Shown in pieces: positions 11,112 to 51,845 of a DNA stretch of 64,000 nucleotides. The position numbers and the translations under genes are program-made. Source of the stretch: a bacterium (lineage in GTDB: Bacteria; Pseudomonadota; Alphaproteobacteria; Rs-D84; CACZYB01). The notes below the pieces were generated by a model. That model had not been told where the DNA came from. It saw only the letters and a list, made by a program, of their open reading frames with translations, and searched no databases. Where the stretch lies: NCBI GenBank assembly GCA_024692925.1, contig JAILLX010000088.1:152-64151 (forward strand), read 5' to 3'. Numbering within the stretch: position 1 is the first letter of the stretch; each line of letters begins with the position of its first letter.

Positions 11112-11981
11112 TCATATTTTAAAATCAGTCCTAATTTTAAATGGAATATTAGGCAATTTCCGCACATTTCTTATTCTTCCACCAACAACAGCCGGCATTT
11201 TCACAGGCTCAGCCAAAATTGCACCAGCAACACTATCCAAACCATCATCATGAACATTGCTATCAACATTCCAGTCTGTAAATTCGCCAATAAACGGAGT
11301 ATTTTTCACTGATTCGTTCACAAAAAGATAGCCCGCAGACACAACCGCATCAAACGCATCCAAAATCCTAAGCTCCTTTGAAACCTTTGAAGTTTTTGCA
11401 ACAACAACCGTATCAATTCCCATTTTCAAAAGTTCGGATCTTAAAAACTCTGGTAAAAATTTACCAATACCATTACTTTCAACATTAATAAGCGGTACAA
11501 AATTTCTTTTTAAAAATCGCCCAACACTTTGACATTGATATCGTGCAGATTGCACATCCTCGCCGTCCTTAAAATAAAGATATTCCACATCATGCAGGTA
11601 ATACCGCCCATCTTCATCAATGAAAACAACTGACACAACCGAACCATCACCATTTTTGGAACCATACGCCGGATCCCACCAACAAGACATACTGATAATT
11701 CGTTTATCCATAATGGAAAAGAAAAGTTCCCTATTCCGCTCCTCTCGTTTTATCTCGGCATCATAGAATGAAAGTTTATTCACATCAAACCTTCCATCAC
11801 TAATATCAACCGGACAAAGCATCATCTGGGCTGAAAATTTTTTCATACCAACTGATTTTTTAAGTTGTTCTATTTTCTCCAACGGAAACTTTTCTTCCCA
11901 AACTGACTTTCCATTTTCAATAACCGGAATTTTCAAGACATCATAACCAATCAAAAAAGCATCGAAAACATCATCACTCAT
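11112..11981 (-). CDS. phage terminase large subunit, C-terminal nuclease (RNase H-like) domain only
   Basis: 289 aa; WWDPAYGSKNGDGSVVSVV (beta1 catalytic Asp) and C-terminal HDDGLDSVAGAI terminase signature; ATG overlaps the portal stop (ATGAGTGA). Confidence 0.8.
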   Translation of the reverse strand: MSDDVFDAFLIGYDVLKIPVIENGKSVWEEKFPLEKIEQLKKSVGMKKFSAQMMLCPVDISDGRFDVNKLSFYDAEIKREERNRELFFSIMDKRIISMSCWWDPAYGSKNGDGSVVSVVFIDEDGRYYLHDVEYLYFKDGEDVQSARYQCQSVGRFLKRNFVPLINVESNGIGKFLPEFLRSELLKMGIDTVVVAKTSKVSKELRILDAFDAVVSAGYLFVNESVKNTPFIGEFTDWNVDSNVHDDGLDSVAGAILAEPVKMPAVVGGRIRNVRKLPNIPFKIRTDFKI

Positions 11982-13485
11982 TTTTTACATCAATCAAATT
12001 TTCCGGCACAGAAAATGTCTTTGCAAGCCACAATGCAACCGCCTTTTTATCGACAATATTTGTTGCCTCTGTCCCAAGTTCAGAAAGAGCCTTTATCCAT
12101 GCCAAAATATTTTCCGCATCACGCACCGCCTGATTTTTTGCAAGTGGTGATTGATACTTCAAATCAACCTCATGCCCATCAATAAATATGTCTTCTATCT
12201 CACCCCTGCGTTTCAAAATTGAAACCGCACGAAGAATAACCGGCGTCAAAAATTCAGATTGAAGTCGGCCATATGTTGCACCCAAAATTCGGCTCATCTG
12301 ATTTGTTCGTTCAATAACTTCTGTCGCAGTCATCTTTGCCGAATTAAAAGATAAAATTTGATCCACCAAAAGACTGTGATTTATCTTTGCCCTTAAATCC
12401 GAAAGGACCAATTGCGAAACATCGAAATCCGCACCGGTCCTAAGTGGTGTAAGCCCACTTGACCCCACCGCCTTTGGAATAATTGTTCCCGGAGCCAAAG
12501 TAATATTTTCGATATTAAGGACACCATCATCATCCGCTTGCCAAACACCACTTACTGCAATTGATGCATTTTTAAGGATAAGTTCCACCACCTTATTTGC
12601 AGTTTTTATATCAGGCAAAGCACTCATCACCGGCGATCTTCCATAAATTTCTGATGGTACTTTCATCCATCTGAAACAAATGAACGGTGAGTTTGCAAAC
12701 ACCCCTGTTTTAAGGACAAATTTATGCCCAAGTTTAAGACAATTATTTTCATCAATTACGAATGCAACATAATTATAACCCTGTTGCCCACATGCATTTA
12801 TCCTTGGCAAAACAGCTTCTATCACCGTCACCATTTCATCCGGATTTTTATTTATATATGAAAGTTGTACTTCATCAAATTCAAAATTTGAAAACCTTAA
12901 TTTCAAATTCAAAAGTGAAAGATTTGTCCTTCTGAAAACCGTATCCAACTTACCATTCAAATTTTCCTCTAATGCAATTTCATTCATTGGCACCGCAGTA
13001 AATTTGAATGCAGAAACATCACCAACCTGATTTTCTTCCATAAGCATTACCGCAGTTCCAATAGTAATCAAATCCAAATAACACTGATGAGCTTCCACAT
13101 AAAAATTTGATCTATCGAAATGAGATTGCAAAGTTTTTTGTATCTTTTCCAATTGTTTGTATTTTTCGGATTTTGTATCTGCATCATCAATCACATCAAC
13201 ACCAAACCCAAGTCCAAACCATCGTGACCATGGTGGAGTAAGTTCCGATAAAATACTTCCTGCTAATTTTGCAACACCACTTTCCGCAGTCGAATCAAAA
13301 ATATCAGGACTTTTCTTTTTTGAATATTGCCCACCGGTAAAAAGTCCACCTTTTTGTGGCAAGGCAAAATCATAACATTCATTCCAATCTGGTTCCCACT
13401 CCAACCTTTTTTCCATTGCCAATTTGTATCTTGAATAAATTTTTTCAAGTTCCATTTCATCAACAACATATCTGTTTTCAAGCAT
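11974..13485 (-). CDS. T7 gp8-like head-to-tail connector (portal) protein
   Basis: 503 aa; alignable by eye to T7 gp8 (D..DSTAESGVAKLAG..L..L.PPW region; conserved YGRS motif in VPSEIYGRSPVMSAL). Confidence 0.8.
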   Translation of the reverse strand: MLENRYVVDEMELEKIYSRYKLAMEKRLEWEPDWNECYDFALPQKGGLFTGGQYSKKKSPDIFDSTAESGVAKLAGSILSELTPPWSRWFGLGFGVDVIDDADTKSEKYKQLEKIQKTLQSHFDRSNFYVEAHQCYLDLITIGTAVMLMEENQVGDVSAFKFTAVPMNEIALEENLNGKLDTVFRRTNLSLLNLKLRFSNFEFDEVQLSYINKNPDEMVTVIEAVLPRINACGQQGYNYVAFVIDENNCLKLGHKFVLKTGVFANSPFICFRWMKVPSEIYGRSPVMSALPDIKTANKVVELILKNASIAVSGVWQADDDGVLNIENITLAPGTIIPKAVGSSGLTPLRTGADFDVSQLVLSDLRAKINHSLLVDQILSFNSAKMTATEVIERTNQMSRILGATYGRLQSEFLTPVILRAVSILKRRGEIEDIFIDGHEVDLKYQSPLAKNQAVRDAENILAWIKALSELGTEATNIVDKKAVALWLAKTFSVPENLIDVKNE

Positions 13486-13507
13486 ATTAAACCCCTTTTC
13501 TTAAATT

Positions 13508-13542
13508 AAAAAAATCCCTTTAAGATAAAATTCTTAAAGGGA
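13508..13542 (-). terminator. rho-independent terminator downstream of ftsZ (minus strand)
   Basis: tccctttaag/cttaaaggga 10-bp stem followed by T-run on the minus strand. Confidence 0.6.
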
Positions 13543-13563
13543 GGTTAAAAAAAATTATAACTA

Positions 13564-15252
13564 TTATTTACTGCTATTATCCTTTTTAAATATTGCCGGA
13601 ATATGCATAGTTTCTTCCATTTTTTGCAACATTTCCATAATATCAGTTTGTTGAGCTTCTTGCTTTTGTTCTTCAAGTCCGCCCGCTAAAAATACGACAT
13701 TATCATCTTCGTGTTTTTCAGTTTTTTCCAATGCTTTCACTTCTAAATTTTCAGATTTCGAAAGCTTTGAATCATCATCACCGAATGTATCAACATCATC
13801 AAAGAAATTATCCTCTTTTGATTCGCCAAGCATATCAAAAAATGATGACAAAGGACTTTTCTTTTTTCCATTACCGCCGTTTGGATCGGTTGGATCATCA
13901 TCGCCATTATCATCATCTTTTTTTGAAACTTCAGCCTCATTCTTTTTTGTAATTTCTTCGGCTTCACGATTTATAAAATCGTCAATACTAAGTGATTCAT
14001 TTTTTTTCATAAAAGCGTCAAAACTATTATCTTCGGTTTGTCCCATATCCTTAAACAAACTTTCAGGTTCAGTTTTTTCATTATCCAAAACAAGTTCGTT
14101 TGCCCCAAGTTCATCAATTGCGACCGAAGGGTCTTTTTCAAATGTTTCGTTATCTATTGGCAAAGGTTTTTCTTCGACTTTTTTCTCTTCCTTTCTATCC
14201 GAAGAAAGAGAAGTCATAAAATCATTCACAACAGGTTTTGTCGCAAAAACATTACCATTTGAAACTGCTTCAGAAAGCCCAGTTGCAATAATCGCCACCT
14301 TTAAATTTTCGCCCATATTTGCATCAAAGCAAGTACCAAGATAAAAGTTTGTTTCATCGCCATCAATTTCACGTCTGATGCTATTCATCACCTCGGCTGG
14401 TTCATCCAAAGAAAGGTTTTCCGGATTCGCAGTAATATTCACCAAAACCGACCTTGCCCCCCTTATATCATTACCGGAAAGCATTGGGTTTTGCAAAACG
14501 CCACTTACTGCCTTAATCGCCCTATCCTCACCACTTTGAACTGATGTACCGATAAGGGTTCTTCCACTTTCCTCCATAACCGCACGAATATCCGCAAAAT
14601 CAAGGTTTATTGTACCTGGGATACGGATTAAATCAGTAATATTTTTCACCCCTTCATAAAGGACATTATCCGAAACCTTAAACGCATTCAAAAATGTCAT
14701 TTGCTTTCCCGCAACATGATAAAGGTTTTGATTAGGAAGCACGATATAAGAGTCCACATTTGGAACCAACTTTGCAATTGCATCGTTTGCAATTTTTTCC
14801 TTTTTCTTTCCTTCAAATTCAAACGGAGTAGTAATAATCGCCACGGTCAAAATTCCCTTTTCCCGAGCAAGCCCAGCAATCACCGGCATTGCACCACTAC
14901 CTGTACCGCCACCCATACCAGCAGTCAAAAAAAGTATATTAGTATTTTTAATTATATCAGAAATTTCGCCACTTGATTCTTCGGCTGCCTTCTGCCCAAC
15001 TTCTGGCCTTGAACCGGCACCAAACCCCTTGGTTGTCTGTTTACCAAGTTGAATTTTTTTCGAAGCCTTTGATTGAATAAGCGATTGTGCATCCGTATTT
15101 GCCACAACAAAATCGACACCATCGATTCCCTGACTAATCATATTATTTACGGCATTACAACCAGCCCCACCAACACCCATTACGGTAATTCGTGGAATAA
15201 AATTTTGAATTTCGTCGTCATTTGATTTATATCCGAAATTTCCTTCAATCAT
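13564..15252 (-). CDS. ftsZ: cell division GTPase FtsZ (long acidic C-terminal linker)
   Basis: 562 aa; ITVMGVGGAGCNAV, tubulin signature LFLTAGMGGGTGSGAMPVIA, NLDFADIRAVM; C-terminal HIPAIFKK resembles conserved DIPAFLR peptide. Confidence 0.92.
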   Translation of the reverse strand: MIEGNFGYKSNDDEIQNFIPRITVMGVGGAGCNAVNNMISQGIDGVDFVVANTDAQSLIQSKASKKIQLGKQTTKGFGAGSRPEVGQKAAEESSGEISDIIKNTNILFLTAGMGGGTGSGAMPVIAGLAREKGILTVAIITTPFEFEGKKKEKIANDAIAKLVPNVDSYIVLPNQNLYHVAGKQMTFLNAFKVSDNVLYEGVKNITDLIRIPGTINLDFADIRAVMEESGRTLIGTSVQSGEDRAIKAVSGVLQNPMLSGNDIRGARSVLVNITANPENLSLDEPAEVMNSIRREIDGDETNFYLGTCFDANMGENLKVAIIATGLSEAVSNGNVFATKPVVNDFMTSLSSDRKEEKKVEEKPLPIDNETFEKDPSVAIDELGANELVLDNEKTEPESLFKDMGQTEDNSFDAFMKKNESLSIDDFINREAEEITKKNEAEVSKKDDDNGDDDPTDPNGGNGKKKSPLSSFFDMLGESKEDNFFDDVDTFGDDDSKLSKSENLEVKALEKTEKHEDDNVVFLAGGLEEQKQEAQQTDIMEMLQKMEETMHIPAIFKKDNSSK

Positions 15253-15398
15253 AATCTCCCCCTTTTGACTTCATTCCCTAAGTATACCATAAAAAAAGCA
15301 AAAAGTTAAGATATAAAAAGCAAAAACGAAAAATATTTTTATTGACTAATCAGAACCAAACACATCCATTCCGGACTTGATTTGGAATCCACAAAAAA

Positions 15399-15908
15399 TT
15401 ATTCGCTAATACTTACATTTGACAAAGCATTATTGCAATCTTCTGCCTTATCCATAAGTTCAGCAAGTTCCTTTGTCGATGATGCCGAAAGTGCCACCGA
15501 AACCAGATTTGCACCTGTCGCCACACCCGAAGCAATAGTCGATGCCAACCGCAAATTTTTCAACTTTGCATTATTATCTTTGTTTATATTTGTCTCAGAT
15601 TTTGCATTAGCTTTTTCACCAATTGCTATATTGTCTTTTTCTTCATTAGCCTTAATAATCTTGCCCGCCTTTAACGCAGCCATTGTGGATGTAGTCGCAC
15701 CAACACCACTTGCCACGGTCGCAACACCCGATGTCACACTGGTTCCAATTGATTTTGATTTCACTTCATTAAGCACAGATTTATCAAACACACAAGTGGA
15801 AATTACCGCCTCTATATTCTCAGCCTGCTTTTTAATTTTTGTGGAAGAAAGCTTTGCCTCCGCCCCAGTTGATACAAAAGCCAACAAAACCAAAATTAAT
15901 TTTTTCAT
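15399..15908 (-). CDS. secreted Gly/Ala/Thr-rich protein
   Basis: 169 aa; signal peptide; GVATVASGVGATTS / GVATGANLVS glycine-zipper-like segments; stop abuts the start of the upstream 553-aa gene. Confidence 0.45.
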   Translation of the reverse strand: MKKLILVLLAFVSTGAEAKLSSTKIKKQAENIEAVISTCVFDKSVLNEVKSKSIGTSVTSGVATVASGVGATTSTMAALKAGKIIKANEEKDNIAIGEKANAKSETNINKDNNAKLKNLRLASTIASGVATGANLVSVALSASSTKELAELMDKAEDCNNALSNVSISE

Positions 15909-17569
15909 TATTCTTCTCCATAACTTTCAAGTTCAGCATTATAAGAGTTGTAAAGCAATTTCAATGCCGACATTTTTGACTCACATTCTTGCAAATGCGA
16001 AAGTGCAGAATCCGCAGTCGCAACCGCTGCCAAAGAAAGAGCAAATGTTCCACCCGATGTTAAAAGTGACCCAGCATTAAGTCCCGCCTGTACCCAATCC
16101 AAAGTATGCGAAGTCTTTACATTGCTATCCACCGACTTTTCGATACTTTTTCTTTGAGAAATCTTACTATTGTTTTCTTCTATCTTTTTAATTCTATTCT
16201 CAAGAAGAACTAAACTATCAGTCATATTTGTTAAACCAGTATCGCTAACATAATTAGATGGATTATTTCTTGCATCACTCCAAATCTCAACAGAAATATT
16301 ATCAGCTTCATTTTTCAACTCTGCATACCTTTTTTCATAAGATTTATCAAATTTATCCTTAGAATCATAACTCAAACCATAAGACTGAATTCTTGCCTTA
16401 CAAGAACCTGCTATCTTATCATCGACAAATTCAGGTTTTTTATTATTATCCAACTTTGTATACTTTTTACATTCAGTAATTTTACTTCCATCATTAGACC
16501 ATTTTACACCACCCATTTCACCTTCAAATTTTAAGAAATCGAAAGTTTTTTCATTAACTTTTTTCTCGACTTCTTTATCATTAAGATTTACTCCTAAGTC
16601 CTTCTTTTTTTCTGCAATCTTAGATTCAAGCTCTTCTTTTGCTCTTAATACACAACCCAATTTTTCTGTTGCAAGCTTGCTCTCATCTAACTTAGTACTT
16701 TCAACCAGACTAAGATCTATCGAAGATTTACAATCATCCTTAGTCGACTTATCTTCTTCACCAGAAACATCTGTTATTTTATTATACTGTTCTATTTTCT
16801 TGCCTACCTCGTTGGTCTTCTTAACATTCACAACACCAACTGCGGTTGCACCACCCGAAAGCAACATACCACCAACCGAAAGCCCAGTCGACCAACCAAG
16901 TTGACCTTTCAACTTTTCCATATCGTCATAAAATGCCGAGCAAGAAGACTTTGCATCATTTATCGCACTAACAATCTTTGGCACAAATTCCGCCACATCA
17001 ACAAACTGTTCATAATCAAATGACATATAGTTCACATCGACATCCGACCTTACAATTTTTAAACGGCGGGAAAGTGCAAATGTTTCAAGTTGAGATTTGC
17101 TTGCCTCCACCAATTCAATTGTATACGAATACCCTGCAAGCAATGGCTGACATTCGAACCCAGCCTCTGCACTATACGAAACAATATCCCCAGATGATGA
17201 AATTCCGGTTAGTTTCATATACGGACCAAAGCAAAGTGTTTCATTAAGCCCTGCTGATCCATTTGATTTATAATATGCCGAAACACTAGGGAGCAACATC
17301 GTCGCCAAATCATACTTCACATCATACCTAAGTTTTGTATCAAAAACCGCAGAGTCGGCAATAAACCTATGTGTCGAAGTTTGTATTGATGAACCTGACG
17401 ATGAACTACTTGAACTGGAAGATGAAGTCGATGACCTACTTGCCCTTAATTCAGATGATGATGTTGCACGTTTCGAAGATCTTGTACTTTTCTTCTTTTT
17501 TGCAAAGGCACCATCGCCCAACCCAAGGCAAAGACTTAAAACCAAACCAGAAACAATAACTTTTCTCAT
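15908..17569 (-). CDS. secreted coiled-coil protein with basic Ser/Arg-rich N-terminal module
   Basis: 553 aa; signal peptide, KKKKSTRSSKRATSSSELRASRSS, poly-Ser, long coiled coil, Gly-rich hydrophobic segments; paralogous to 47176..48756. Confidence 0.5.
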   Translation of the reverse strand: MRKVIVSGLVLSLCLGLGDGAFAKKKKSTRSSKRATSSSELRASRSSTSSSSSSSSSSGSSIQTSTHRFIADSAVFDTKLRYDVKYDLATMLLPSVSAYYKSNGSAGLNETLCFGPYMKLTGISSSGDIVSYSAEAGFECQPLLAGYSYTIELVEASKSQLETFALSRRLKIVRSDVDVNYMSFDYEQFVDVAEFVPKIVSAINDAKSSCSAFYDDMEKLKGQLGWSTGLSVGGMLLSGGATAVGVVNVKKTNEVGKKIEQYNKITDVSGEEDKSTKDDCKSSIDLSLVESTKLDESKLATEKLGCVLRAKEELESKIAEKKKDLGVNLNDKEVEKKVNEKTFDFLKFEGEMGGVKWSNDGSKITECKKYTKLDNNKKPEFVDDKIAGSCKARIQSYGLSYDSKDKFDKSYEKRYAELKNEADNISVEIWSDARNNPSNYVSDTGLTNMTDSLVLLENRIKKIEENNSKISQRKSIEKSVDSNVKTSHTLDWVQAGLNAGSLLTSGGTFALSLAAVATADSALSHLQECESKMSALKLLYNSYNAELESYGEE

Positions 17570-17696
17570 TCCAATTCTCCCATAAATATATTAAACATAG
17601 TACCATATTTTTGGACATAATCCAAGCAATATTTGAAAAAATTTACTTTTTTTGTTGCGTTTTAGTAAAATATCGGTTATAAACTATACATCCGAT

Positions 17697-17772
17697 GGCG
17701 AGGTAGCTCAGTTGGTAGAGCAAAGGACTGAAAATCCTTGTGTCGGCAGTTCGATTCTGCCCCTAGCCACCA
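17697..17772 (+). tRNA. tRNA-Phe (GAA)
   Basis: Cloverleaf by hand: acceptor GGCGAGG/CCUAGCC (one G4.A69 mismatch), D-loop AGUUGGUAG, anticodon loop cuGAAaa, T-loop UUCGAUU, encoded CCA. Confidence 0.88.
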
Positions 17773-17779
17773 TAAATTC

Positions 17780-17810
17780 ACTCCCCACTGTTTTGTGGGG
17801 AGTTTTTTTA
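17780..17810 (+). terminator. rho-independent terminator after tRNA-Phe
   Basis: ctccccac...gtggggag hairpin + T-run. Confidence 0.6.
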
Positions 17811-17828
17811 TTTCGAAAAATGATTATT

Positions 17829-19016
17829 TTATTTTGAATTATATTCCGATATTCCAAGGAAATCCTCTAATTTTACTGATCCTTTTTTTAAACTTTCCGT
17901 TCCCTTTACAAACATATTGTCACAATCAAGATATCCCTTTAAACGAGTCTGAAGTTCAGAATACCAAGGTTTTTCCTTTAATCCATTAAGTATAAATTTC
18001 AAATTTTCATTCATTTTATTTGAATGATTACGAATAGTCATATCCAAAAATGGGTTATAATCCTTAATACTACTTTCGGAATGTATTTCCGCTATCTTTG
18101 CAAAAGCCGAATACATATCAAAATTTAGTTTACTTCCATCAACAATGCTATTCATAATACTTTTACGCATTGAAAAAAACACACCACCAGAAGTCAAAGT
18201 TTTATAGACATTATCAATATTTTCATCCATTAACTTTTCATTAAACTCAATCAATGAAAGCCCTTCATCTTCCAACCTACTTTCCAAAGATTCGGAATGG
18301 GATTTATTACCACCATCACCCTTTAACCCCATATCATTTGCAATACTTGCAACCTTCACAGAAACATCATCTTCATGGGAAGATACAAATTTTTTCCCCA
18401 TTTCACCCAATGAAAGTTTTACAACATTATCCCTCAAAATATGAAACAATATAGAATTTTTTTCCTCATCCGATTTTGCATTTTCATAATCGAATTTAGT
18501 ATAATAATCAGCTACCTCTAAAATCTGTTTTACCTCATCTTCTGTATAATTCGAAGTTTTATAAACAGCAGAGTTTTTGCCAATTTCATACAATTTATCC
18601 CCTTTTTGTACTGGCTTAACAATAAAGGCATTATCAGGCAACACCAATCCCGTATCAGGATTAGGAATAAACCATGTATCATCTACCGAAACACTTTGTG
18701 GATTTACATTTTTACTAACCAACTCATTATATGGTATCAACACTACAAAAGGAGTTTTATCCCAATTCCCAGCCATATGAGATGTTACCACTTGATTTAA
18801 TGTTACATGCACACTAGCCCTAGGAAGCTTATAATCCGTAGCCATACCAGTAGTTTCAATATATCGCTCGCCATTCAAATTAACCTTTGGCTCATACTTT
18901 GTTGCATGAACACAAACCCAATTTTTCACATCAGACATATAGTCCACTTTGGCTTTTTTATCTTTTAATTCAAAAGATTCTACTTTTTCTAATAATTCCA
19001 TTTTTGCTCCTATCAA
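17829..19016 (-). CDS. hypothetical protein
   Basis: 395 aa intact ORF, no recognisable motifs; lies between the terminase ATPase half and tRNA-Phe. Confidence 0.45.
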   Translation of the reverse strand: MIGAKMELLEKVESFELKDKKAKVDYMSDVKNWVCVHATKYEPKVNLNGERYIETTGMATDYKLPRASVHVTLNQVVTSHMAGNWDKTPFVVLIPYNELVSKNVNPQSVSVDDTWFIPNPDTGLVLPDNAFIVKPVQKGDKLYEIGKNSAVYKTSNYTEDEVKQILEVADYYTKFDYENAKSDEEKNSILFHILRDNVVKLSLGEMGKKFVSSHEDDVSVKVASIANDMGLKGDGGNKSHSESLESRLEDEGLSLIEFNEKLMDENIDNVYKTLTSGGVFFSMRKSIMNSIVDGSKLNFDMYSAFAKIAEIHSESSIKDYNPFLDMTIRNHSNKMNENLKFILNGLKEKPWYSELQTRLKGYLDCDNMFVKGTESLKKGSVKLEDFLGISEYNSK

Positions 19017-20083
19017 AACCCAAAATTATTATAGCATTTTTACAAATCAAAAAACAATAATTAAAAAAAGCAAATATTCCATTCAATTCTAAAGGTAATC
19101 ATTAAAAATATCCTCCATATTTTAAACGAAAAACCAACACAAAAACACCCAACATTTTCCAATCCTCAAATCCATATTGTTCATTTATTGACAAATATTT
19201 ATTTTAGTCCTAAAAATTTGAGAATTCTCGAAAAAAAATAACAAAAAAGTGATTTTTTTATTTGAAATTTAAAAATTAAATTGCTAAAAAAGAACTATGT
19301 TTCGACCGATTCGAGAATCGATTCTATTTTTTACAAAAAGAATCGGTTTTTAAAGTGCTTTTTCTAGTGATTTTTCACTAGACAATTTGATTTTTCAAAA
19401 AGAATCTTAAAATTTTTAACTGATTGATTTTACAGTAAAATTTTTTGTTTTTCTTAGTTTAAAAAGTTGCCAAAAAAAGAATCGCTTGACTTTTTTTGTC
19501 GAGTAGTTTAAGAATCTAGCTATGAAACGAATTTGAAATATATTTTTAAGTTTGTTTTCACAGTTATTCCCTGTTGCGTTCCTTTTCTCTCCTTTCCTCC
19601 TTCTCTCCTCGCAACGGGGAATTTTTTTTATCTTGAGCAAGATATCCGAGTAAACAACCTTCCCTTGCCATTGCAAAGCAAAGGCGTGACAATCCATAAT
19701 AAGACAAACACATCTACTGTCACCCTGAACTTGTTTCAGGGTCCAGATCCCGAAATAAATTCGGGATGACCAAAGTTGGCGGAAATATCCCACTTTACCA
19801 TTACGAGAAATCCTAGAATTGCTGGTTTGTATACTCGGTTGGCTCCGATAAAAAAATCCCTTAAGTCGAGGAGAGAGAGAAAATAAGGAGGGAATGACTT
19901 AAGGGATATACTGGCTTTCACCAGACTTGCCGAAATGAGGGGTCGTCTCGGCAAATTTTGTTTTCGTATTAACGAATTGACTTCATTATACAAATTTATT
20001 TTTCTTTGTCAATATATTTTTGAAAAAAATTTTTATTTGTATAATATTTTTAATTTTTTCAGTAAAATCAATAGGTTTTTATT
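19017..20083. promoter_or_regulatory. ~1.07 kb non-coding region: AT-rich iterated AAAAAGAATC repeats and palindromes, then a GC-richer block of long hairpins
   Basis: AAAAAGAATC at 19335, 19397, 19474 (+AAGAATC 19509); palindromes gagaattctc, gaatcgattc, ctagtga-N5-tcactag; hairpins 19569-19619 and 19858-19905 with complementary CT-/GA-rich 28-31 nt loops. Confidence 0.5.
19719..19743. repeat. palindromic hairpin repeat, copy A (gtcaccctgaacttgtttcagggtc)
   Basis: Same unit as at 41931, 42046, 42377; stem carries a compensatory change (ccctgaa/ttcaggg vs tcctgaa/ttcagga); preceded by shared 18-nt box aatccataataagacaaa (19691-19708). Confidence 0.7.
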
Positions 20084-20683
20084 CTAAGTTTTATAAATTG
20101 TATCCAATGTATGAGGTGTCCCAATAAAAATTTGCATACCATTTGGCACCAAAATAAAGCTATATTCCAAAAGTTTCTCTCTCAAATCTTGTCTTTTTTG
20201 AAAAGTATCGCAATTTTTTGGTACCTCCACATCATCACAAATCACAACATCAGCCCTACTTCCCGTAGCATTAGACATAAGTCCCACCGCCATCATAGAT
20301 GGATCCCGCAAAGCCACATCACGTGCCACGGTAAAACTTCCCGACGCCCACTCTGATTTTTTCTCAGGTCTAATTTCTTCTAACAAAGGAAAAGTTTCAA
20401 TAATTCGCTTAACATTTCTGACCATCTTTTTTGCCAAAACTGTATCCGCCGCAACCACTAAAATCCTAAGGTTCGGATTAGTATATAAAAGCCACGCACA
20501 AAACACACCAACTATTGTTGACTTTCCACTACTTCGAAACGCCATCAAAAGACCTTTTTTATTTTCAGATTTGTAAATATTCAAAAGCCACTTTGCAATA
20601 CGTATATGGTGCGATGGTGTCGAAAGTCCCTGAAATTTATTCCAATCCAAAAGGAATTTTTCAAAATCAACTTTTTCAACCAT
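20084..20683 (-). CDS. phage terminase large subunit, N-terminal ATPase domain only
   Basis: 199 aa; Walker A AFRSSGKST, ILVVAADTVLAKK, Walker B GSRADVVICDDVE, IFIGTPHT: matches Terminase_6N-type ATPase core; ORF stops after the ATPase domain. Confidence 0.82.
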   Translation of the reverse strand: MVEKVDFEKFLLDWNKFQGLSTPSHHIRIAKWLLNIYKSENKKGLLMAFRSSGKSTIVGVFCAWLLYTNPNLRILVVAADTVLAKKMVRNVKRIIETFPLLEEIRPEKKSEWASGSFTVARDVALRDPSMMAVGLMSNATGSRADVVICDDVEVPKNCDTFQKRQDLREKLLEYSFILVPNGMQIFIGTPHTLDTIYKT

Positions 20684-20684
20684 T

Positions 20685-21110
20685 TTATACTATATTCAAA
20701 TCACCAAATGAATCCAACAAATCCAAACTTTTCTTTCGCATAGTCAAAAGATTTTTATTTTTCTTATAGTTATAATTTATATCATTCGAAGCCAAAGCAA
20801 GATCGGAAAAATATTCCTTATTTTTAATTTCATCCTCTGCTTCTCTTTCCATACTACCAAGAAGGACTGCCGAAGACCCATCTGTAAAATCCACACCATT
20901 TGATGCCATCTTTGCTTTTTTACTTGCAACTTTTGATTTAAGAAGGTTTCTTTTTTCCTCCTCATAAAGTTCTTGTTTTTTCCTTAAATTATCCTCTTGA
21001 ATCTTTGCTTCTTTTTTTGCTAATTTTTTTGATTTTTTAGCATCTTGTATATCCATCACGGTTTTCGCAGCAGAAACAACTCCACCAATCACCGCAGCCG
21101 TAGTTCCCAT
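20685..21110 (-). CDS. hypothetical coiled-coil protein (position of T7 gp13-like internal/assembly protein)
   Basis: 141 aa; follows the gp12-like gene as gp13 does in T7; no direct motif. Confidence 0.35.
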   Translation of the reverse strand: MGTTAAVIGGVVSAAKTVMDIQDAKKSKKLAKKEAKIQEDNLRKKQELYEEEKRNLLKSKVASKKAKMASNGVDFTDGSSAVLLGSMEREAEDEIKNKEYFSDLALASNDINYNYKKNKNLLTMRKKSLDLLDSFGDLNIV

Positions 21111-21122
21111 AATAAATACCTC

Positions 21123-22997
21123 CTATCTTATTACATCAACCAACATTGACATATTTAAAATTTTTAATTTACAAGGAGCCGAACTTTGAATTTTAAACAA
21201 AGGAATTTGGTAATTTTTAACAAAACCTTTTCCACGAATTTTTACATCACCAGAAAAATATTCATCATTAAGAATTATATTTTTAAGTCCCGCCCCTGTA
21301 TCTACTTCCAACTTTTCTGTATCCATAAGTCGTAAATTAAGTTCCAACAGTCTTACCGCCTTTGGAATAAAGCTTGAACCAACAAACAAAGGTAAAGGAC
21401 AAAAGATATGAGTAAAAGGAAGCCCAACAACAATATTTTTACAAGGCTTCGGCAAACTAACTTCATTATTTTCCACCCGTAAATTATAAATTTCACCATC
21501 CGCAACAACTACTACATCTTTATTATTTAAAAAGTCCAAATCAGTAATAGTCGAAATTTCCGTTATCGAAGATATTTTCTTTGCTTTATCAAGAAATAAA
21601 TCTTCATCAAAAACTTCTAAACTATAGGTTCCATCTCGTTCCACAACGACATAAACTTTATCAAATAACACAGCCAACGATTTAAACTTTCCATTGGTTT
21701 TATATTGCACCCACGCATTTGTATTATGACTTTTGTTTATAAGAAGTACTGCCAAAGTTCCATCTTCCTGTACAACATAAAGCCTTCGTTTTTTAACATT
21801 ATAATCTTGTTCCAATGGATTATTAAGAAGATGTGACGAAAGCAAAATTAAATCTTCGGATGAATAATTTTCACTTAAATCGCCATAGAAAAACTCTCTT
21901 ATTTCCTTTTTATTTCTTGCCACAAAAATTGTTGAACCTTCTACAAATTTCGGAGCAATATACCTATCATCCACCGACCCAATTTTTGTTTGTTGACTAA
22001 CACTGATATTCGACGGAGTAATCGGATTCCCAACAACCATCCATTCGGAATCAGATGTAAAAACTTGTAAATGTTTACCGGCAAAAACCGAAACTATTTG
22101 ATTACGCTTGTCTGAAAAAATATCAAATTCAATAGCTTCATCATCAAGTCCACTTCCCAAATCGAAATTAAAGTATTCACCAATTTTTGAAAACCACAAC
22201 CTATTTTTTAAAACATCAGTTCCACCAATCACAAGTCTGTTTTGATAAAAAGCAATACTTGCCGGATATCCACTTTTCTCAGAAAATGCCTGTTCTTGCC
22301 AATTTGCATCTGCATCTTTTGAATTCAAATCCACATTAACAGTTGCATTTGCAACACGTCCCGTAGAAACAGAATTTATCAGTATTTCTCCACCATTTAT
22401 CAAAATCTTCACACCGACATAAATACTGGAAAACAAAGATTGACTTGCCACAATTTTTATTTCCCCAGTTGTCCCATTAGGTGTCAATGTAATCCCTTCG
22501 GTACCATCAATTCTTGTATACGGTTCACACGAATATCCATATGTCGGATGTTTAGGATATATCCAAAAAGCAATAGTCCATGTTCCAACCAACTTATTAT
22601 ACCTAATAATCCGAGGCGGAATAAAAGGATGAACCAAATACAAAGTTTGTCCCTTTTGCACCCATCGCATCTTTGGCAAATCAGAAAGAGTATACGGTGA
22701 ATCTAATGTAGTCACAAACTCACCATTTTTATTAAAAATATCAATATATTCATCTCTGAAAAAAAGTAAAAACATACTGTCTTCGGAATATTCAAAGGCA
22801 ATAATTTTCCCATTTGATTCCAAACTTGAAACAAATTTCAAACCGCTTCGTCTTTCAATACCACCTGTCTGAATCACATCAAAATTAGTAAGGTTCATCG
22901 CCGAACTTCTGTATGCCGAAATATTTCCACGCCCAAACAAATTTCGTGAAAGTTCGCCAAACGAAAAATCATTATAAGTAATACTTTGTTTTGCCAT
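21123..22997 (-). CDS. T7 gp12-like tail tubular protein B
   Basis: 624 aa; KNRLWFSKIGEYFNFDLGSGLDDEAIEFD aligns to T7 gp12 RNRLGFLSG..AKYFNFYP..LSDDDPID; gene order gp11-gp12 preserved. Confidence 0.7.
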   Translation of the reverse strand: MAKQSITYNDFSFGELSRNLFGRGNISAYRSSAMNLTNFDVIQTGGIERRSGLKFVSSLESNGKIIAFEYSEDSMFLLFFRDEYIDIFNKNGEFVTTLDSPYTLSDLPKMRWVQKGQTLYLVHPFIPPRIIRYNKLVGTWTIAFWIYPKHPTYGYSCEPYTRIDGTEGITLTPNGTTGEIKIVASQSLFSSIYVGVKILINGGEILINSVSTGRVANATVNVDLNSKDADANWQEQAFSEKSGYPASIAFYQNRLVIGGTDVLKNRLWFSKIGEYFNFDLGSGLDDEAIEFDIFSDKRNQIVSVFAGKHLQVFTSDSEWMVVGNPITPSNISVSQQTKIGSVDDRYIAPKFVEGSTIFVARNKKEIREFFYGDLSENYSSEDLILLSSHLLNNPLEQDYNVKKRRLYVVQEDGTLAVLLINKSHNTNAWVQYKTNGKFKSLAVLFDKVYVVVERDGTYSLEVFDEDLFLDKAKKISSITEISTITDLDFLNNKDVVVVADGEIYNLRVENNEVSLPKPCKNIVVGLPFTHIFCPLPLFVGSSFIPKAVRLLELNLRLMDTEKLEVDTGAGLKNIILNDEYFSGDVKIRGKGFVKNYQIPLFKIQSSAPCKLKILNMSMLVDVIR

Positions 22998-23005
22998 TAC
23001 TCCTC

Positions 23006-23569
23006 CTATTTTCTTGCATCAATCAAAGAAAAATTTTTCAAAGATTCTGTTGTTTGTTGCATACCATCTATTGATTTTGCTTCTTTTATTTCAGAATTAA
23101 AAAGCCTGTAAAATAATGAATATTTTGATGTATCATTCAAAAGAGAAATCGAAAGTTCGGCAGCCATCAAATAAATAAATGATGAAACAAAAAGTGGTGA
23201 AAAACAATCCTCTCCTACATCAGAAATATACTCAAGTTCCACTTCTTCATCATTACAAAACAAATAGCTCCCTGCAATTTTGTATTTTACTCCTGATGAA
23301 ATTTTCACCGCCCTTAAAAAATCAGCCGGAAGAATATATGCATAACTGTAATCATAACGATTAACATCATCAGCCCTTGTCAACAACGCTGTTTTCAAGG
23401 CAAAACTCCACGCATAAAGGCAAAGAAGTTTTTGTTTTAATCCCAAATAAATACTTTCACAAATTTCCGATTCAACAGTTCCATCTTCAAAAGAAGTTAT
23501 CGAATTCGCCCCAATTTTATTAAGGGCTTTTGAACATAATTCAATATTTGAAAAACTCATATTACTCAC
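23006..23569 (-). CDS. T7 gp11-like tail tubular protein A
   Basis: 187 aa; N-terminus ELCSKALNKIGANSITSFEDG aligns to T7 gp11 [23 protein letters not shown]; size matches (196 aa). Confidence 0.65.
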   Translation of the reverse strand: MSNMSFSNIELCSKALNKIGANSITSFEDGTVESEICESIYLGLKQKLLCLYAWSFALKTALLTRADDVNRYDYSYAYILPADFLRAVKISSGVKYKIAGSYLFCNDEEVELEYISDVGEDCFSPLFVSSFIYLMAAELSISLLNDTSKYSLFYRLFNSEIKEAKSIDGMQQTTESLKNFSLIDARK

Positions 23570-23615
23570 CTTTTCCCTTTTTAAAAAAAGGGGGTCATTG
23601 CCCCCTTAAAATTTA

Positions 23616-23861
23616 CTAAACAACAGAAGATATACTTACTACACCCGCAGTAATCGCACTTACAACAAATATAGTTGTTTCCATTGTTCCATTTATAGAA
23701 GAAGATACAACAATCAAATCACCAACATTATAAATATTTGCAACATCGTTAAAATATCCTGATGTTGAAACAACACTCTTTGCATCTTCTGTTTTATAAT
23801 GCCACAAAGTAAAACCATTCGCATACGCAAGAACAGATAAATTTTTTGAATTCATACTCAT
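23616..23861 (-). CDS. hypothetical small protein between the capsid and tail tubular A genes
   Basis: 81 aa intact ORF; hydrophobic C-terminus. Confidence 0.35.
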   Translation of the reverse strand: MSMNSKNLSVLAYANGFTLWHYKTEDAKSVVSTSGYFNDVANIYNVGDLIVVSSSINGTMETTIFVVSAITAGVVSISSVV

Positions 23862-23896
23862 TTTATTTTTTCCTTTCCTTTTTTTATTTATAAAGC

Positions 23897-24727
23897 CTAA
23901 GCAATTGTTGCATCATCATCGCAAAGGATTTTTACAATACCTAAATTATCAATAAGTTTTGCACCCTGACTCATACAATTTGATACGAAATGAGATGCTC
24001 TTTCGCCATGCCATGAAATATCAGTTTTTACATCACAACCTGATGCATGACCTATTGCATTTTTGTGATAAATAAAGCAACTACGATTACCATCAGCAAT
24101 TGGCAAAGAATTATGTAAAATCCAATTAATTCCCATCCATTTTCTTGATTCTGTACCTTTCAAAAGAGGATATGAATCACCAACATAATCAGCACTGGAA
24201 AATTCTTCCATACTTAAAAGTTCATTCCATTGATGCACACCAACAACACCAAATCTTTGGCCATCATCCGGCACATCATTTGCATTTAAAAATTCTAATG
24301 CTTCAAAAATTTTTGATTTAGTAAGACCTGTTGAACCGGCACTAACCGCATTTGTTGCTTTATCAAGTTCTGAAATAATAAGTTCATCACTTTTTCTTCC
24401 CAAAGCATACGCACCAGCCGATGCAACAACTCTTCTTTCATCAATGTTTGTTTTAAGTTCATCAAGCTCGTCAACCCAATCCCCAGCATAGTAATCAGTA
24501 AGTACACATTCAACTGGTGTATGATCCAAATTCATCACTGGAACAAGTCCGTGTCTTGATTTAGTCGAAGCAATCCCCTTACCAATTTTTTGAAAAGTTG
24601 TTGAACTACCTCTTACATCATTTTTTGTTCTAACTGTTGAACGAAGTTTTGTTCCCATTTGTTGAAAAGCAAGGTGAACTTCCGCTTCGAATTGTTTTAT
24701 AAATACATTATCAATAGATACTGACAT
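23897..24727 (-). CDS. T7 gp10-like major capsid protein (HK97 fold)
   Basis: 276 aa; FEAEVHLAFQQ..RSTVRTKNDVRGSSTTFQKIGKG..ASAGAYALGRKSDELIISEL aligns to T7 gp10A FGGEVLTAF..SVTTSRHMVRSISSGKSAQFPVLGR..SQLGESLAMAADGAVLAEI. Confidence 0.78.
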   Translation of the reverse strand: MSVSIDNVFIKQFEAEVHLAFQQMGTKLRSTVRTKNDVRGSSTTFQKIGKGIASTKSRHGLVPVMNLDHTPVECVLTDYYAGDWVDELDELKTNIDERRVVASAGAYALGRKSDELIISELDKATNAVSAGSTGLTKSKIFEALEFLNANDVPDDGQRFGVVGVHQWNELLSMEEFSSADYVGDSYPLLKGTESRKWMGINWILHNSLPIADGNRSCFIYHKNAIGHASGCDVKTDISWHGERASHFVSNCMSQGAKLIDNLGIVKILCDDDATIA

Positions 24728-24835
24728 ATTTTAATCTCCTATATTTTATTAAAAAAAAGAGCAATATTTCTATTACCCAAACAAAAAATCCGCCTTGAAA
24801 CCAAGACGGATAAAAGTATAATTAAATCTTAAATT

Positions 24836-25396
24836 TTATTTTTTTACTTTTGTAATAATTGGTTCAATTCCCCTTACAATTCCATGCATCGAAGATATTG
24901 TAAACAAAACAGAAGCAAAAAATAGTACGAAAATTTGCACCGAAGATTCAATCAACTGTTTCGAATATTTTGTTAAAACCAAAAGATCTGTGTAAAACAA
25001 AATTGCAAATGCGAATGATACCAAAAATGAAACCAAAAGTTCGTATTTAAAAGATTTATTAAACACATATTCTATCTTTAATTTTTTCGATTTAATCATA
25101 ACATATTTTAAAATACCACACACAATAATAAAAGGCATAAATACTTTCACAATATTAAAAATTGCATCCACAACACCAATAAACATTATTTCGATTGGGT
25201 TCATTGCAAATCCAACAAGTTTATAAGTTTCCAACTTTTTAACAAAGGATTGTGTAAAGCATAAAATTACAGAAAGTACCAATACTGTTTTAATTATTGC
25301 ACCGGTATGATTATAAAAAAATCCCAACAATTTTCCAAAAAACGAAGATTTTTTATTTTCCTGTTTTCTGGTCTTGTTGGGATCCGAAACTACCAA
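24836..25396 (-). CDS. hypothetical polytopic membrane protein
   Basis: 186 aa; ~4 hydrophobic helices. Confidence 0.45.
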   Translation of the reverse strand: MVVSDPNKTRKQENKKSSFFGKLLGFFYNHTGAIIKTVLVLSVILCFTQSFVKKLETYKLVGFAMNPIEIMFIGVVDAIFNIVKVFMPFIIVCGILKYVMIKSKKLKIEYVFNKSFKYELLVSFLVSFAFAILFYTDLLVLTKYSKQLIESSVQIFVLFFASVLFTISSMHGIVRGIEPIITKVKK

Positions 25397-25404
25397 AGAA
25401 ATTT

Positions 25405-25839
25405 CTACTTCTTTGCTACTTTTTTTTTTGCTACTGGTTTAACAGCTTTCTTAACAGAAGCAACTTTTACAGCAGCTTTCTTAACAACGATTTTCTTTTT
25501 TGCTGGAGCTTTTACTGCAACTTTTTTTGCAGGAGCTTTTTTAGCAACTACTTTTTTAGCAGGAGCCTTTTTAACAGCAACCTTTTTAGCAGGAGCTTTT
25601 TTAGCAACTACTTTTTTAGCAGGTGCTTTTTTAACAGCAACTTTTTTTGCAACTACTTTTTTTGCTGGAGCTTTTTTAACAGCTACTTTTTTAGCAGGTG
25701 CCTTTTTAGCAGGAGCTTTCTTAACAGTAACTTTTTTTACTTCAACTTTTTTAACAGTAGTTTTTTTAACTTCAACTTTTTTTGCAGCTGGTTTTTTAGC
25801 AGCAGGTTTTACAGTTTTTTTAATTATACTTTTAAACAT
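25405..25839 (-). CDS. histone H1-like / Hc1-like Lys-Ala-rich DNA-binding protein (start reassigned to MFKS with AAGGAG RBS)
   Basis: ~144 aa; almost entirely KKAPAKKV(A/V)V decapeptide repeats; pI strongly basic. Confidence 0.72.
   Translation of the reverse strand: MFKSIIKKTVKPAAKKPAAKKVEVKKTTVKKVEVKKVTVKKAPAKKAPAKKVAVKKAPAKKVVAKKVAVKKAPAKKVVAKKAPAKKVAVKKAPAKKVVAKKAPAKKVAVKAPAKKKIVVKKAAVKVASVKKAVKPVAKKKVAKK
25440..25830. repeat. tandem ~30-nt coding repeats inside the H1-like gene
   Basis: gcaggagcttttttagcaactacttttttag... repeated >8x; the antisense ORFs 25297..25909 are artefacts of this repeat. Confidence 0.75.
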
Positions 25840-25929
25840 AATTCTCTCCTTAATTAAAACAAAAGACAATTACAATATACCACATAAAAAAGAATACTGC
25901 AATACTTAAATTAAAAAAATGCAAAAAAA

Positions 25930-26523
25930 TTATTCATCACCATACAAAAATTTAAAACCATCATCAACTTTTTTTATAAAATTTTTATCATTATCTCTCC
26001 AATATTTTGGATCCTTCATCATCTCTTTTAATTTTTCTTCTGTAATGACATCAGCAACTTCACCAGATTTTGCCATAACTTTTGGTTCACCCGAAGTCAT
26101 CATATTGTAAAGTGCAATCACGCCATAAAAAGATGTATTCAAAGATTGATAAATTTCAGCCGGTAAATTTTTATCAGCCCACAAAGAAATTTGTCGTGCA
26201 ATTTCATCAAATCTTTCTTCACCACCAAAATAATTTTCAAGCTTTGATAATTCTTTGTAAAGTTTAAATTCATTAACAACTTCCCTGATTTTTGGAATCA
26301 TAATTTCCGCAGCCAAATCATAAACAAGTTGTGCCTGTTCATTTGTAAATCCTGCAACTTTAAGCCTTTTGTTTACCTCTTCATCAATTGTTAAAAATTG
26401 GCTGTGAAGAACTATTTCATATCCCTTTTCTGCACCATCAGTTTTAAGTGCCAAATCCAAAATATCTTTGTTTGGATTAGTTTGCTTTTCATCCTGTTTT
26501 ATTTCAATTTTTTTATCTTCCAT
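25930..26523 (-). CDS. acidic helical protein, possible capsid scaffolding protein
   Basis: 197 aa; acidic, helical; position upstream of the capsid gene as gp9 is in T7; no direct motif. Confidence 0.3.
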   Translation of the reverse strand: MEDKKIEIKQDEKQTNPNKDILDLALKTDGAEKGYEIVLHSQFLTIDEEVNKRLKVAGFTNEQAQLVYDLAAEIMIPKIREVVNEFKLYKELSKLENYFGGEERFDEIARQISLWADKNLPAEIYQSLNTSFYGVIALYNMMTSGEPKVMAKSGEVADVITEEKLKEMMKDPKYWRDNDKNFIKKVDDGFKFLYGDE

Positions 26524-41916: not shown

Positions 41917-41930
41917 TCGCATAATACCTT

Positions 41931-41955
41931 GTCATCGTGAACTTGTTTCAGGATC
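41931..41955. repeat. palindromic hairpin repeat, copy B (gtcatcgtgaacttgtttcaggatc)
   Basis: Matches copies at 19719, 42046 and 42377(rc). Confidence 0.65.
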
Positions 41956-42045
41956 TAAAACTAATATCCTGTCATTGCGAACCTCACAGTGGCACGGTAA
42001 TCCATAATAAGACAAATATATCCTTTGTCACACTTATATATAATT

Positions 42046-51751: not shown

Positions 51752-51845
51752 AATTTTAATGTCGCTTGCCAATATCGGAAACAACCTTGCTTACTTCTAA
51801 ACTCCTCACTAACACCGTTCGTCGTTAAGGTTGCGCAAGAACGTT

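Follow-up and report, generated by a model that had tools for sequence, protein, structure and literature searches.

The window analysed here is a stretch of 64,000 nucleotides from contig JAILLX010000088.1 of an alphaproteobacterial metagenome-assembled genome (MAG), and its subject is a 1-kb spacer at 19017-20083 (all positions are those of the window). The spacer is flanked by a 395-amino-acid (aa) open reading frame (ORF; 17829-19016, minus strand) and by the gene for TerL-N, a 199-aa protein that represents the N-terminal, ATPase part of a T7-like large terminase (TerL) split in two (20084-20683, minus strand; PHROG 38, E 3e-42). Two structured RNA genes very probably lie within it, each on the strand on which its long loop reads as C and U. 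They are called small RNA (sRNA)-A, on the minus strand, and sRNA-B, on the plus strand. Our overall reading, to which we give a probability of roughly 55%, is that the spacer consists of two independently transcribed paralogous sRNA genes, here facing each other, with the regulatory role proposed below.

A first-pass annotation, made from the letters of the window, had described the first half of the spacer as AT-rich and the second as GC-richer, and the GC fraction agreed (0.17-0.28 in 19000-19550 and 19950-20100; 0.40-0.44 in 19550-19950). It had also seen no credible ORF there, and none with family support was found. The longest mechanical ORF (19416-19793, 125 aa, GTG start) was rejected as a gene, as it had no PHROG match and overlaps both sRNAs. 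A 32-nt pyrimidine run is the longest in the 64-kb window.

Relatives of the locus were gathered through TerL-N homologs and one metagenome pattern scan. All are MAG or metagenome contigs, named as Alphaproteobacteria or Rickettsiales MAGs, and they are referred to by locus number (L002 and so on) where they have to be told apart.

Candidate RNA genes and their upstream regions

The promoter of sRNA-A (19985-20012, minus strand) consists of TTGACA (20012-20007), a 16-nt spacer and TATAAT (19990-19985), a 12/12 match to the consensus, and it is kept in all relatives directly after the TerL-N stop. With ends placed from the promoter and the terminator, sRNA-A would be about 130 nt long (about 19978-19848) and would fold into three small stem-loops followed by a terminator hairpin. 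This hairpin has a 10-bp stem (19905-19896 / 19867-19858), a 28-nt loop (19895-19868; AUUCCCUCCUUAUUUUCUCUCUCUCCUC) and a U7 run (19856-19850). Its loop is composed of C and U with four A, is free of G and contains CCUCCUU. The loop of stem-loop 2 (SL2), GACGACCCCUCAU, is invariant. Ahead of this hairpin, no terminator belonging to the TerL-N operon itself is present.

For sRNA-B, a promoter scan on the plus strand identified TTGACT (19486-19491), an 18-nt spacer and AAGAAT (19510-19515). The RNA, delimited in the same way, would be about 110 nt long (about 19520-19632), with an AU-rich 5' stem-loop and a terminator hairpin composed of a 10-bp stem (19569-19578 / 19610-19619), a loop at 19579-19609 (UUCCUUUUCUCUCCUUUCCUCCUUCUCUCCU) and a U8 run (19622-19629). 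The loop is 31 nt of pure C and U and again includes CCUCCUU, which is an anti-Shine-Dalgarno (anti-SD) core. Other motifs present in the loops are CCCUCCUU and CCCCUC.

Both RNAs fold better than shuffled sequences, and they do so on the C/U strand. The minimum free energy (MFE) of sRNA-A is -39.8 kcal/mol (z -7.35, against -3.6 on the opposite strand) and that of sRNA-B is -31.0 kcal/mol (z -7.54, against -2.75). The long loops of both RNAs and the SL2 loop are unpaired in the MFE and centroid structures. The two terminator-like hairpins with CT-rich and GA-rich long loops had been noticed in the first-pass annotation, and their coordinates, perfect 10-bp stems and T-runs were confirmed. As intrinsic terminators they have the stem and the U-run (U8 on the plus and U7 on the minus strand), but not the short loop, typically 3-8 nt, their loops being 31 and 28 nt. 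A terminator consensus scan with loops of 3-8 nt missed both full hairpins and gave only a 6-pair sub-hairpin at 19606-19620.

The compensatory changes that the first-pass annotation had proposed to look for in related spacers are present in both RNAs. In a 14-sequence alignment of sRNA-A, with an RNAalifold structure of 28 pairs, nine pairs were changed on both sides and 98.5% of cells were paired, a value that 0/500 shuffles reached; in slid-partner controls, pairing fell to 25-51%. Several pairs are invariant or frequent G-U pairs, which are A-C mismatches on the other strand, and the invariant G-U pairs identify the C/U strand as the RNA strand. Variation in sRNA-B is lower than in sRNA-A. 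Four of its pairs are changed on both sides, the changes including GCG/CGC to GUA/UAC and an entirely different stem in L148. A covariance model of sRNA-A (R1) scored 140-170 bits in relatives, falling to 70 bits in the distant L146; its E-values are rough. Further R1 matches in L057, L049, L032 and at window position 33422 were rejected as homologs, as they are a coding stretch (L057) and ordinary short-loop terminators. No Rfam family matched in the window or in five relatives, so that the family match which the first-pass annotation had named as a possible refutation was not seen; for the curated covariance models of known alphaproteobacterial sRNAs, this negative extends to E 10 in the spacer of the window and to E 1 in the five relatives. 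Collectively, a conserved sigma-70-type promoter for each RNA, covarying stems, invariant loops and the absence of an Rfam match bear out the suggestion of a pair of convergent small RNAs.

Three other structural assignments were rejected. First, a CsrB/RsmZ-type sponge with GGA loops would have to be read from the opposite strand, and promoters, U-runs, invariant G-U pairs and folding z-scores all favour the C/U strand. Second, a phi29-type pRNA would not fit, as there is no Rfam match and both long loops, transcribed from their own strands, are pyrimidine-rich, G-free and without mutual pairing. Third, a self-splicing group I/II intron in TerL is contradicted by the absence of intron-model matches, by the C-terminal half of TerL lying 8 kb off and by the promoters and terminators inside the spacer.

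The AT-rich half upstream of sRNA-B is marked by recurrent boxes. The motif AAAAAGAATC occurs exactly at 19335, 19397 and 19474, as the first-pass annotation had it, with 62- and 77-nt spacing, and nowhere else in the 64 kb; the fourth AAGAATC starts at 19510 rather than 19509. As the window-wide expectation for AAAAAGAATC is 1.09 and 7/100 shuffles give three or more, its count is weak alone, and it is the clustering that matters. Nowhere in the window are GANTC sites denser than in 19308-19516, where seven fall in about 205 nt; the runner-up has 5 per 300 nt. Against a local Markov expectation of 0.87, a count of seven was reached in 0/5000 simulations. One GAATC site overlaps the -10 element of sRNA-B and the AAAAAGAATC copy at 19474-19483 abuts the -35 element. 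All sites of the cluster are GAWTC within the longer AAGAATC box.

Phylogenetic footprinting over 12 loci delimited a conserved upstream control region of sRNA-B at 19253-19485 (plus strand). It contains the blocks TTTTTTATTTG and TTAAATTGCTAAAA, followed by GATTCGAGAATCGAT, which is the GATTC-N2-GAATCGAT region (19308-19322), AAAAGAATCG (19336-19345), TAGACAAT (19380-19387), AAAGAATCTT (19398-19407) and TTGATTTTAC (19424-19433). Across these 12 loci the promoter block GCCAAAAAAAGAATCGCTTGACTTTTTTTGTCGA..TTTAAGAATC hardly varies, and its core is kept in the GC-rich L146 and L149. A box of the form TTGATTTTAC(A/T)G(T/A)AAAA lies about 60 nt upstream of the -35 element in both promoters (19418-19443, plus; 20050-20077, minus). 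The copy before sRNA-A, TTGATTTTACTGAAAAAATT, forms with the other an inverted repeat (I3, 81% complementary) and is present upstream of sRNA-A in relatives. This common box suggests that the two putative promoters share a regulator.

The boxes are likely to be cis-regulatory sites of sRNA-B. A more tentative idea is that they act through DNA methylation or GcrA, GANTC being the motif that CcrM methylates and GcrA recognises in Alphaproteobacteria. Seven conserved GANTC sites lie in or near the promoter at 19308-19516, as in the GcrA/CcrM promoters of Caulobacter, where such sites stand in and upstream of sigma-70 promoters of another alphaproteobacterial host; five of the seven, read by eye, fit YGAKTCK, the motif preferred by Caulobacter GcrA (PMC4647560). 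However, GAWTC within the AAGAATC box may instead serve another regulator.

The iteron- or operator-like architecture put forward in the first-pass annotation holds insofar as conserved cis-elements are present, namely the upstream control region of sRNA-B and the flanks of its -10 and -35 elements; iterons are not. As an iteron origin or oriC, the spacer was rejected, with a repeat core of 7-10 nt at 62- and 77-nt spacing, compared to about 17-22 bp, and no adjacent initiator gene. Cumulative GC skew falls on both sides of the spacer and plateaus inside it, with no switch, and the flanking genes are TerL-N and the 395-aa ORF, of no known family, with no rep, integrase or invertase gene beside the spacer. 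The three palindromes reported earlier are all there (gagaattctc at 19220, cgattcGAGAATCgattc at 19306-19324 and ctagtga..tcactag at 19364-19381), the last with a spacer of 4 nt rather than 5. Only the GATTC..GAATCGAT block and TAGACAAT are kept in relatives among these elements; gagaattctc and CTAGTGA..TCACTAG, conserved only in the closest relatives, were rejected as operators.

The hairpin repeat that the first-pass annotation had placed between the terminators as copy A (19721-19742) is indeed a dispersed repeat, also found at 41933, 42048 and 42378, but it is part of neither RNA. The copy extends over 19691-19752 (plus strand), with counterparts at 41929-42079 and 42378. The whole family (CAYCCTGAACTTGTTTCAGGRT with about 40 nt of upstream flank) has three copies near 42 kb (41929-42079, 42378-42399) and one in the spacer. 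The middle segment, 19670-19815, is not conserved in L002 and had no BLAST match among plasmids. This non-conserved middle is best read as a dispersed-repeat insertion. The stem ttgccga..tcggcaa, also reported earlier, exists, but it is stem-loop 2 of sRNA-A read on the opposite strand.

Each RNA gene is followed by a related module. After sRNA-A it is CGGAGCCAACCGAGTATACAAACCAGCAATTCTAGGATTTCTCG (19800-19847, minus strand), truncated in the window, and after sRNA-B it occupies 19632-19668 (plus strand). The motif that they share, a small hairpin and GAGTAtACaAACC, is longer in L002, L090, L094, L119 and L139, where it occurs as tandem duplicates together with partial copies of the terminator. 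The layout is a small hairpin, then GAGTAtACaAACCAG..TTCTAAA..GCTAACACCGCTCG..AAGAA, then a copy of the 3' half only of the pyrimidine-loop terminator, as seen after sRNA-A or sRNA-B in L090 (6215-6400), L094 (5820-6020), L002 (7040-7165, minus) and L139 (6680-6800). The module could be a decayed paralog or a read-through RNA.

Relatives and genomic setting

In split-terminase lineages (71-89% TerL-N identity) sRNA-A comes right after TerL-N, and sRNA-B is present in most of them; both promoters are kept upstream of the RNAs whatever their orientation to neighbouring genes. The loops are more constant than the stems. The sRNA-B loop is identical in nine lineages and is 29/31 identical in L149, and it stays at 29-31/31 even where TerL-N identity is only 58-63%. 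In the GC-rich L146 (63% TerL-N identity), the terminator stem of sRNA-A is almost wholly replaced (CCCCCGGGTC / GATCCGGGGG) around an almost unchanged loop, and the sRNA-B loop is 31/31 identical. L149 (58%, also GC-rich) retains sRNA-B together with the core of its promoter, CTTGACTTTTTTTGTC..TAAGAATC, and the GANTC cluster upstream. A single sRNA gene of the same type fills the 270-nt gap between the terminase halves of L148, with TTGACA-17-TATAAT, a different stem (CCTAAGGCAC / GTGCCTTGGG) and a B-like loop.

The loop cores were found in 29 (sRNA-B) and 34 (sRNA-A) of 153 sources scanned, and all those with flanks read belong to the split-TerL clade. None occurred in the 80 genome loci L004-L083, which mostly have an intact TerL. 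Two pattern scans of IMG/VR for the loops and a BLAST search of GenBank phages with the spacer gave no match. In the metagenome pattern scan, eight of 40 matches were real and the rest were chance low-complexity matches.

In most lineages A and B follow each other in tandem on the strand of the genes, separated by the AT-rich box region. In the window and in its closest relatives, L002, L003, L119, L128, L134 and L139, the block of AT-rich region, promoter and sRNA-B is inverted, so that A and B converge, and in L138 they diverge. The orientation is fixed within clades and therefore does not indicate phase variation. When the 431-nt region is folded whole, the MFE structure pairs the two loops (-137 kcal/mol, z -6.2). 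The first-pass annotation had taken the loops as partners for pairing or triplex formation. This function is not supported, as most relatives have both loops as pyrimidine tracts on the same strand and L138 has them divergent. Long-range loop-loop pairing was likewise rejected as a conserved feature. Since the orientation varies between lineages, loop complementarity on one DNA strand is a by-product of a lineage-specific inversion.

The window contains housekeeping genes (TyrRS, GroEL, RmuC, Fmt, IF-2, a GyrB/ParE-type topoisomerase subunit and FtsZ). To judge by gene content, it is part of a low-GC alphaproteobacterial MAG chromosome with an evidently domesticated T7-like cluster. A phage genome with a phage regulatory spacer is ruled out by these genes and by relatives on contigs of up to 0.8 Mb. 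The T7-like structural cluster is embedded on the minus strand at 11112-26523 and includes genes for scaffold (25930-26523), capsid (23897-24727), tail protein (21123-22997), internal virion protein (20685-21110), terminase and portal (11974-13485). Directly behind the portal gene lies orf289 (11112-11981, 289 aa), whose product has a terminase nuclease domain and is TerL-C.

The gene next to the spacer is, as first described, a terminase ATPase gene, but it encodes only the N-terminal half of a split TerL and lies on a bacterial chromosome. Residues 1-197 of TerL-N align to residues 8-207 of the intact Micavibrio TerL, and the orf289 product covers residues 221-500, the lid and nuclease half. 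Thus, the spacer begins exactly at a clean point of gene fission. In Micavibrio, Thalassospira and Magnetospirillum, as in most of the 80 alphaproteobacterial genome loci, a single uninterrupted ORF of about 500 aa encodes the large terminase. Both halves are retained as conserved ORFs, and the gap between them differs by lineage. It is 270 nt with one pyrimidine-loop sRNA gene in L148 (6001-7747), 3.3 kb with DnaB and helix-turn-helix genes on the opposite strand in L151 (5001-9765), and about 8 kb with ftsZ and the portal gene in the window.

The ftsZ gene (13564-15252, minus strand) is full-length, with Tubulin and FtsZ_C domains, and lies between TerL-N and the portal gene. It sits inside the T7-like cluster and not beside other division genes, an arrangement kept in several lineages (L002, L084-L103, L149). 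A tRNA-Phe gene (17697-17772, plus strand; also L084 6318-6390, L094 6469-6541, L138 1444-1516 and L149 about 5920-5995) is linked to sRNA-B in nearly every lineage, with variable orientation and side. The shuffling of tRNA-Phe and the A/B inversions mark the locus as an apparent rearrangement hotspot; no recombinase gene was found beside the spacer.

Proposed mode of action and its alternatives

In the proposed mechanism, the open pyrimidine loops would act in trans by pairing with purine-rich ribosome-binding sites of mRNAs and blocking translation initiation. By analogy with known sRNAs, such anti-SD pairing has a chance a little short of even. As the late operon of the T7-like cluster has no terminator of its own before sRNA-A, this RNA could also arise as the 3' end of that operon. 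Transcription of sRNA-B may be tied to the cell cycle or to the DNA methylation state, and the nearby ftsZ would be the best local candidate for a target.

The closest comparison is the cuckoo or alpha-r14 family of alphaproteobacterial hosts (RSs0680/CcsR1-4 of Rhodobacter; SmelC397/NfeR1 of Sinorhizobium), whose C/U loops pair with SD regions (PMC4615179). The likeness extends to small multi-hairpin RNAs with variable, compensating stems, conserved anti-SD-like C/U loop motifs, side-by-side paralogs and presumed occlusion of ribosome-binding sites. Compared to these RNAs, the present ones differ in several respects. First, every cuckoo hairpin loop carries CCUCCUCCC, which is absent here, and the spacer has no CCTCCTCCC even with one mismatch. 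Second, cuckoo loops are 9-27 nt, whereas CCUCCUU here lies within pyrimidine tracts of 28-31 nt. Third, the motif hairpin here is the terminator itself. Fourth, cuckoo genes lie downstream of a DUF1127 gene, and the present genes at the fission point of a T7-like terminase.

In LhrC1-5 of Listeria, the terminator loop is the experimentally proven binding site for the G-rich SD region of the target (PMC4132741). LhrC, RsaE and RNAIII (PMC4132741) resemble the present RNAs in a CUCCC..UUUU-type motif in an internal and a terminator loop, in multiple copies and in low GC, and unpaired C-rich loop motifs, including one in the terminator loop, were found here as in the LhrC/RsaE type. However, they come from an unrelated phylum without sequence homology, and have short loops instead of an invariant tract of about 30 nt, the function here being a proposal. 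The RNAs may thus work like cuckoo/CcsR/NfeR1 or LhrC anti-SD sRNAs, but they are not members of either family, because CCUCCUCCC is absent, no model matches and the motif is carried by a long-loop terminator.

That ftsZ is a target appears doubtful on the modelled duplexes. Its initiation region (AAAAGGGGGAGAUUAUG) ranked 1/56 for loop B (-22.3 kcal/mol, with -16.3 for the next) and 2/56 for loop A, and, averaged over seven lineages, the duplex energy of ftsZ was the best of 12 neighbouring ortholog groups. In L094, L102 and L149, sRNA-B lies directly upstream of ftsZ. A precedent is DicF of the E. coli Qin cryptic prophage, which represses ftsZ translation by pairing at the ribosome-binding site (PMC5069750). 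DicF is encoded in a defective prophage-derived region, and the present RNAs lie between a domesticated T7-like cluster and ftsZ. It differs in that neither its sequence nor its structure is similar and Rfam gave no match, and the ftsZ link here rests on weak duplex ranks and synteny.

Several points weigh against an anti-SD role and an ftsZ target. The ranking of targets was limited to genes within about 10 kb, ftsZ has a long purine-rich SD and its signal is weak, 3% of generic SD contexts match its duplex score, and its rank is poor in L002, L084 and L088. A seed of 6-10 nt for anti-SD pairing does not explain 31 invariant loop nucleotides across lineages of differing GC, and the exact cuckoo motif CCUCCUCCC is missing. 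Furthermore, the transcript ends were placed from consensus motifs, and the covariation counts rest on roughly 8-10 independent lineages, partly inherited. The invariance of about 30 loop nucleotides may reflect multiple overlapping seeds or a protein partner for G-free C/U RNA.

A protein partner is the substance of one alternative, unlikely but of some weight, in which the RNAs are real but would serve as decoys or sponges, their G-free C/U loops binding a protein such as ribosomal protein S1, Rho or a cold-shock protein (Csp) and not mRNAs. S1, Rho (at YC-rich rut-like sites) and Csp recognise single-stranded pyrimidine-rich RNA. The long loops are predicted to be unpaired, and the near-complete identity of loop B, across TerL-N identities of 58-63% and widely differing GC, exceeds what a short seed needs. 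However, the exact anti-SD core is found in both loops, and known C/U-loop sRNAs of like architecture act by base pairing.

It is highly unlikely that the hairpins are just a bidirectional terminator or insulator pair around the T7-like late operon, with incidental loops and no stable regulatory RNA. Both are convergent and have the textbook stem and U-run of a terminator, and the TerL-N operon has no other. A dedicated conserved promoter stands 110-130 nt upstream of each hairpin, however, with further covarying 5' stem-loops; the loops are invariant while the stems drift, and in most relatives A and B are arranged in tandem and do not converge.

A cis-acting version, in which sRNA-B is a leader or attenuator, its GANTC-rich promoter is the ftsZ promoter and the C/U loop sequesters the ftsZ SD, is very improbable. 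It would suit lineages with sRNA-B on the ftsZ strand, 250-700 nt upstream (L094/L095, L102/L103, L149), and the ftsZ initiation region as the best local match of the loop; in Caulobacter, ftsZ is a direct target of GcrA, which binds the methylated ftsZ promoter (PMC4647560). But sRNA-B ends in a strong terminator. In L094, sRNA-B and ftsZ are separated by a tRNA-Phe gene, which is found in either orientation and has its own terminator; in L149, ftsZ has its own TATAAT just upstream; in the window, sRNA-B points away from ftsZ at a distance of 4 kb; and L146 has sRNA-B with no ftsZ nearby.

A further idea, a long shot, regards the pyrimidine-loop RNAs as functional partners of the domesticated T7-like particle system and not as ordinary housekeeping sRNAs. 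It draws on the RNA gene in the TerL gap of L148, on sRNA-A standing behind TerL-N in every examined split-TerL lineage that has sRNA-A, and on ftsZ having been drawn into the same locus in several lineages. The RNAs might then be a switch or cofactor through which cell division is coupled to the making or packaging of particles; one way would be to stop translation of ftsZ on late-operon read-through, in the manner of DicF. In a more radical option, they might act directly with the split terminase.

Extremely improbable, finally, is a feature at the DNA level (a polypurine-polypyrimidine mirror tract forming H-DNA or a triplex, a site of recombination or inversion, a pac site, an att site beside tRNA-Phe, or an origin of the T7-like element with iterons): loops that are C/T-rich and G/A-rich on one strand and pair in a single transcript, A-B orientations that differ between lineages, partial duplications and the position at the terminase fission point speak for it. 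Against it, the loops are complementary only in some lineages, selection on RNA is indicated by the G-U pairs and by folding that differs between the strands, there is no rep, integrase or invertase gene beside the spacer and no GC-skew switch, and the repeats are of 7-10 nt. The packaging signal, replication signal or att site of the first-pass annotation found no support.

If regulatory sRNA genes are confirmed here, they would form an undescribed family of uncultured, mostly gut-associated Alphaproteobacteria, defined by an invariant pyrimidine terminator loop of about 30 nt with an anti-SD core, and a clean model for separating multiple overlapping seeds from protein decoys. The interest of the RNAs is moderate alone and is raised by their position at a terminase fission point in a chromosomal cluster that encloses ftsZ. 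At this locus, a particle system of phage origin, regulation by small RNAs and cell division may be connected, a link that can be tested. With the covariance model and the loop motifs, the RNAs can be annotated in MAG regions that are at present called empty.

Neighbouring genes and repeats

At least 300 stretches of alphaproteobacterial genomes, among them those of Micavibrio, Thalassospira, Magnetospirillum and Terasakiella, carry a relative of the T7-like terminase. The scanned ORFs of the window showed neither a phage DNA polymerase nor a phage RNA polymerase, and the T7-like cluster looks like a domesticated, possibly gene transfer agent-like element. A literature search on the cluster, the split terminase or the ftsZ arrangement gave nothing relevant.

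The 395-aa ORF occupies a variable gene position next to tRNA-Phe, where the close relative L002 has an unrelated 452-aa ORF. Its upstream region and ribosome-binding site (GGAGcaaaaATG, ATG at 19001) take up 19017-19230 (minus strand) and are lineage-specific, not being conserved in L002. No Pfam, PHROG or phage tblastn match was found for the product, and its exact sequence was not found in the protein collection. It is possibly a receptor-binding or fibre gene of the particle. The sum of 199 and 395 aa, close to the length of T7 gp19, had prompted the idea that it was the missing C-terminal part of TerL and the spacer an intron. This assignment was ruled out, as the ORF has no family match and orf289 is the actual C-terminal half.

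The gene immediately upstream of the T7-like cluster (27815-28315, minus strand) encodes a 166-aa protein whose sole domain is an OmpR-type winged helix (Trans_reg_C) and which is a candidate for regulating the cluster or the sRNA promoters. A tandem array with a 15-nt period, in which some 19 or more copies overlap, lies at 25420-25839, just downstream of the scaffold gene; it is probably coding sequence of a repetitive kind. A 51-nt direct repeat (51729-51779 / 51846-51896) is 96% identical between its copies, and the first copy starts in the 3' end of a tRNA-Glu gene (51676-51751). It looks like the footprint of an element integrated at that tRNA gene.

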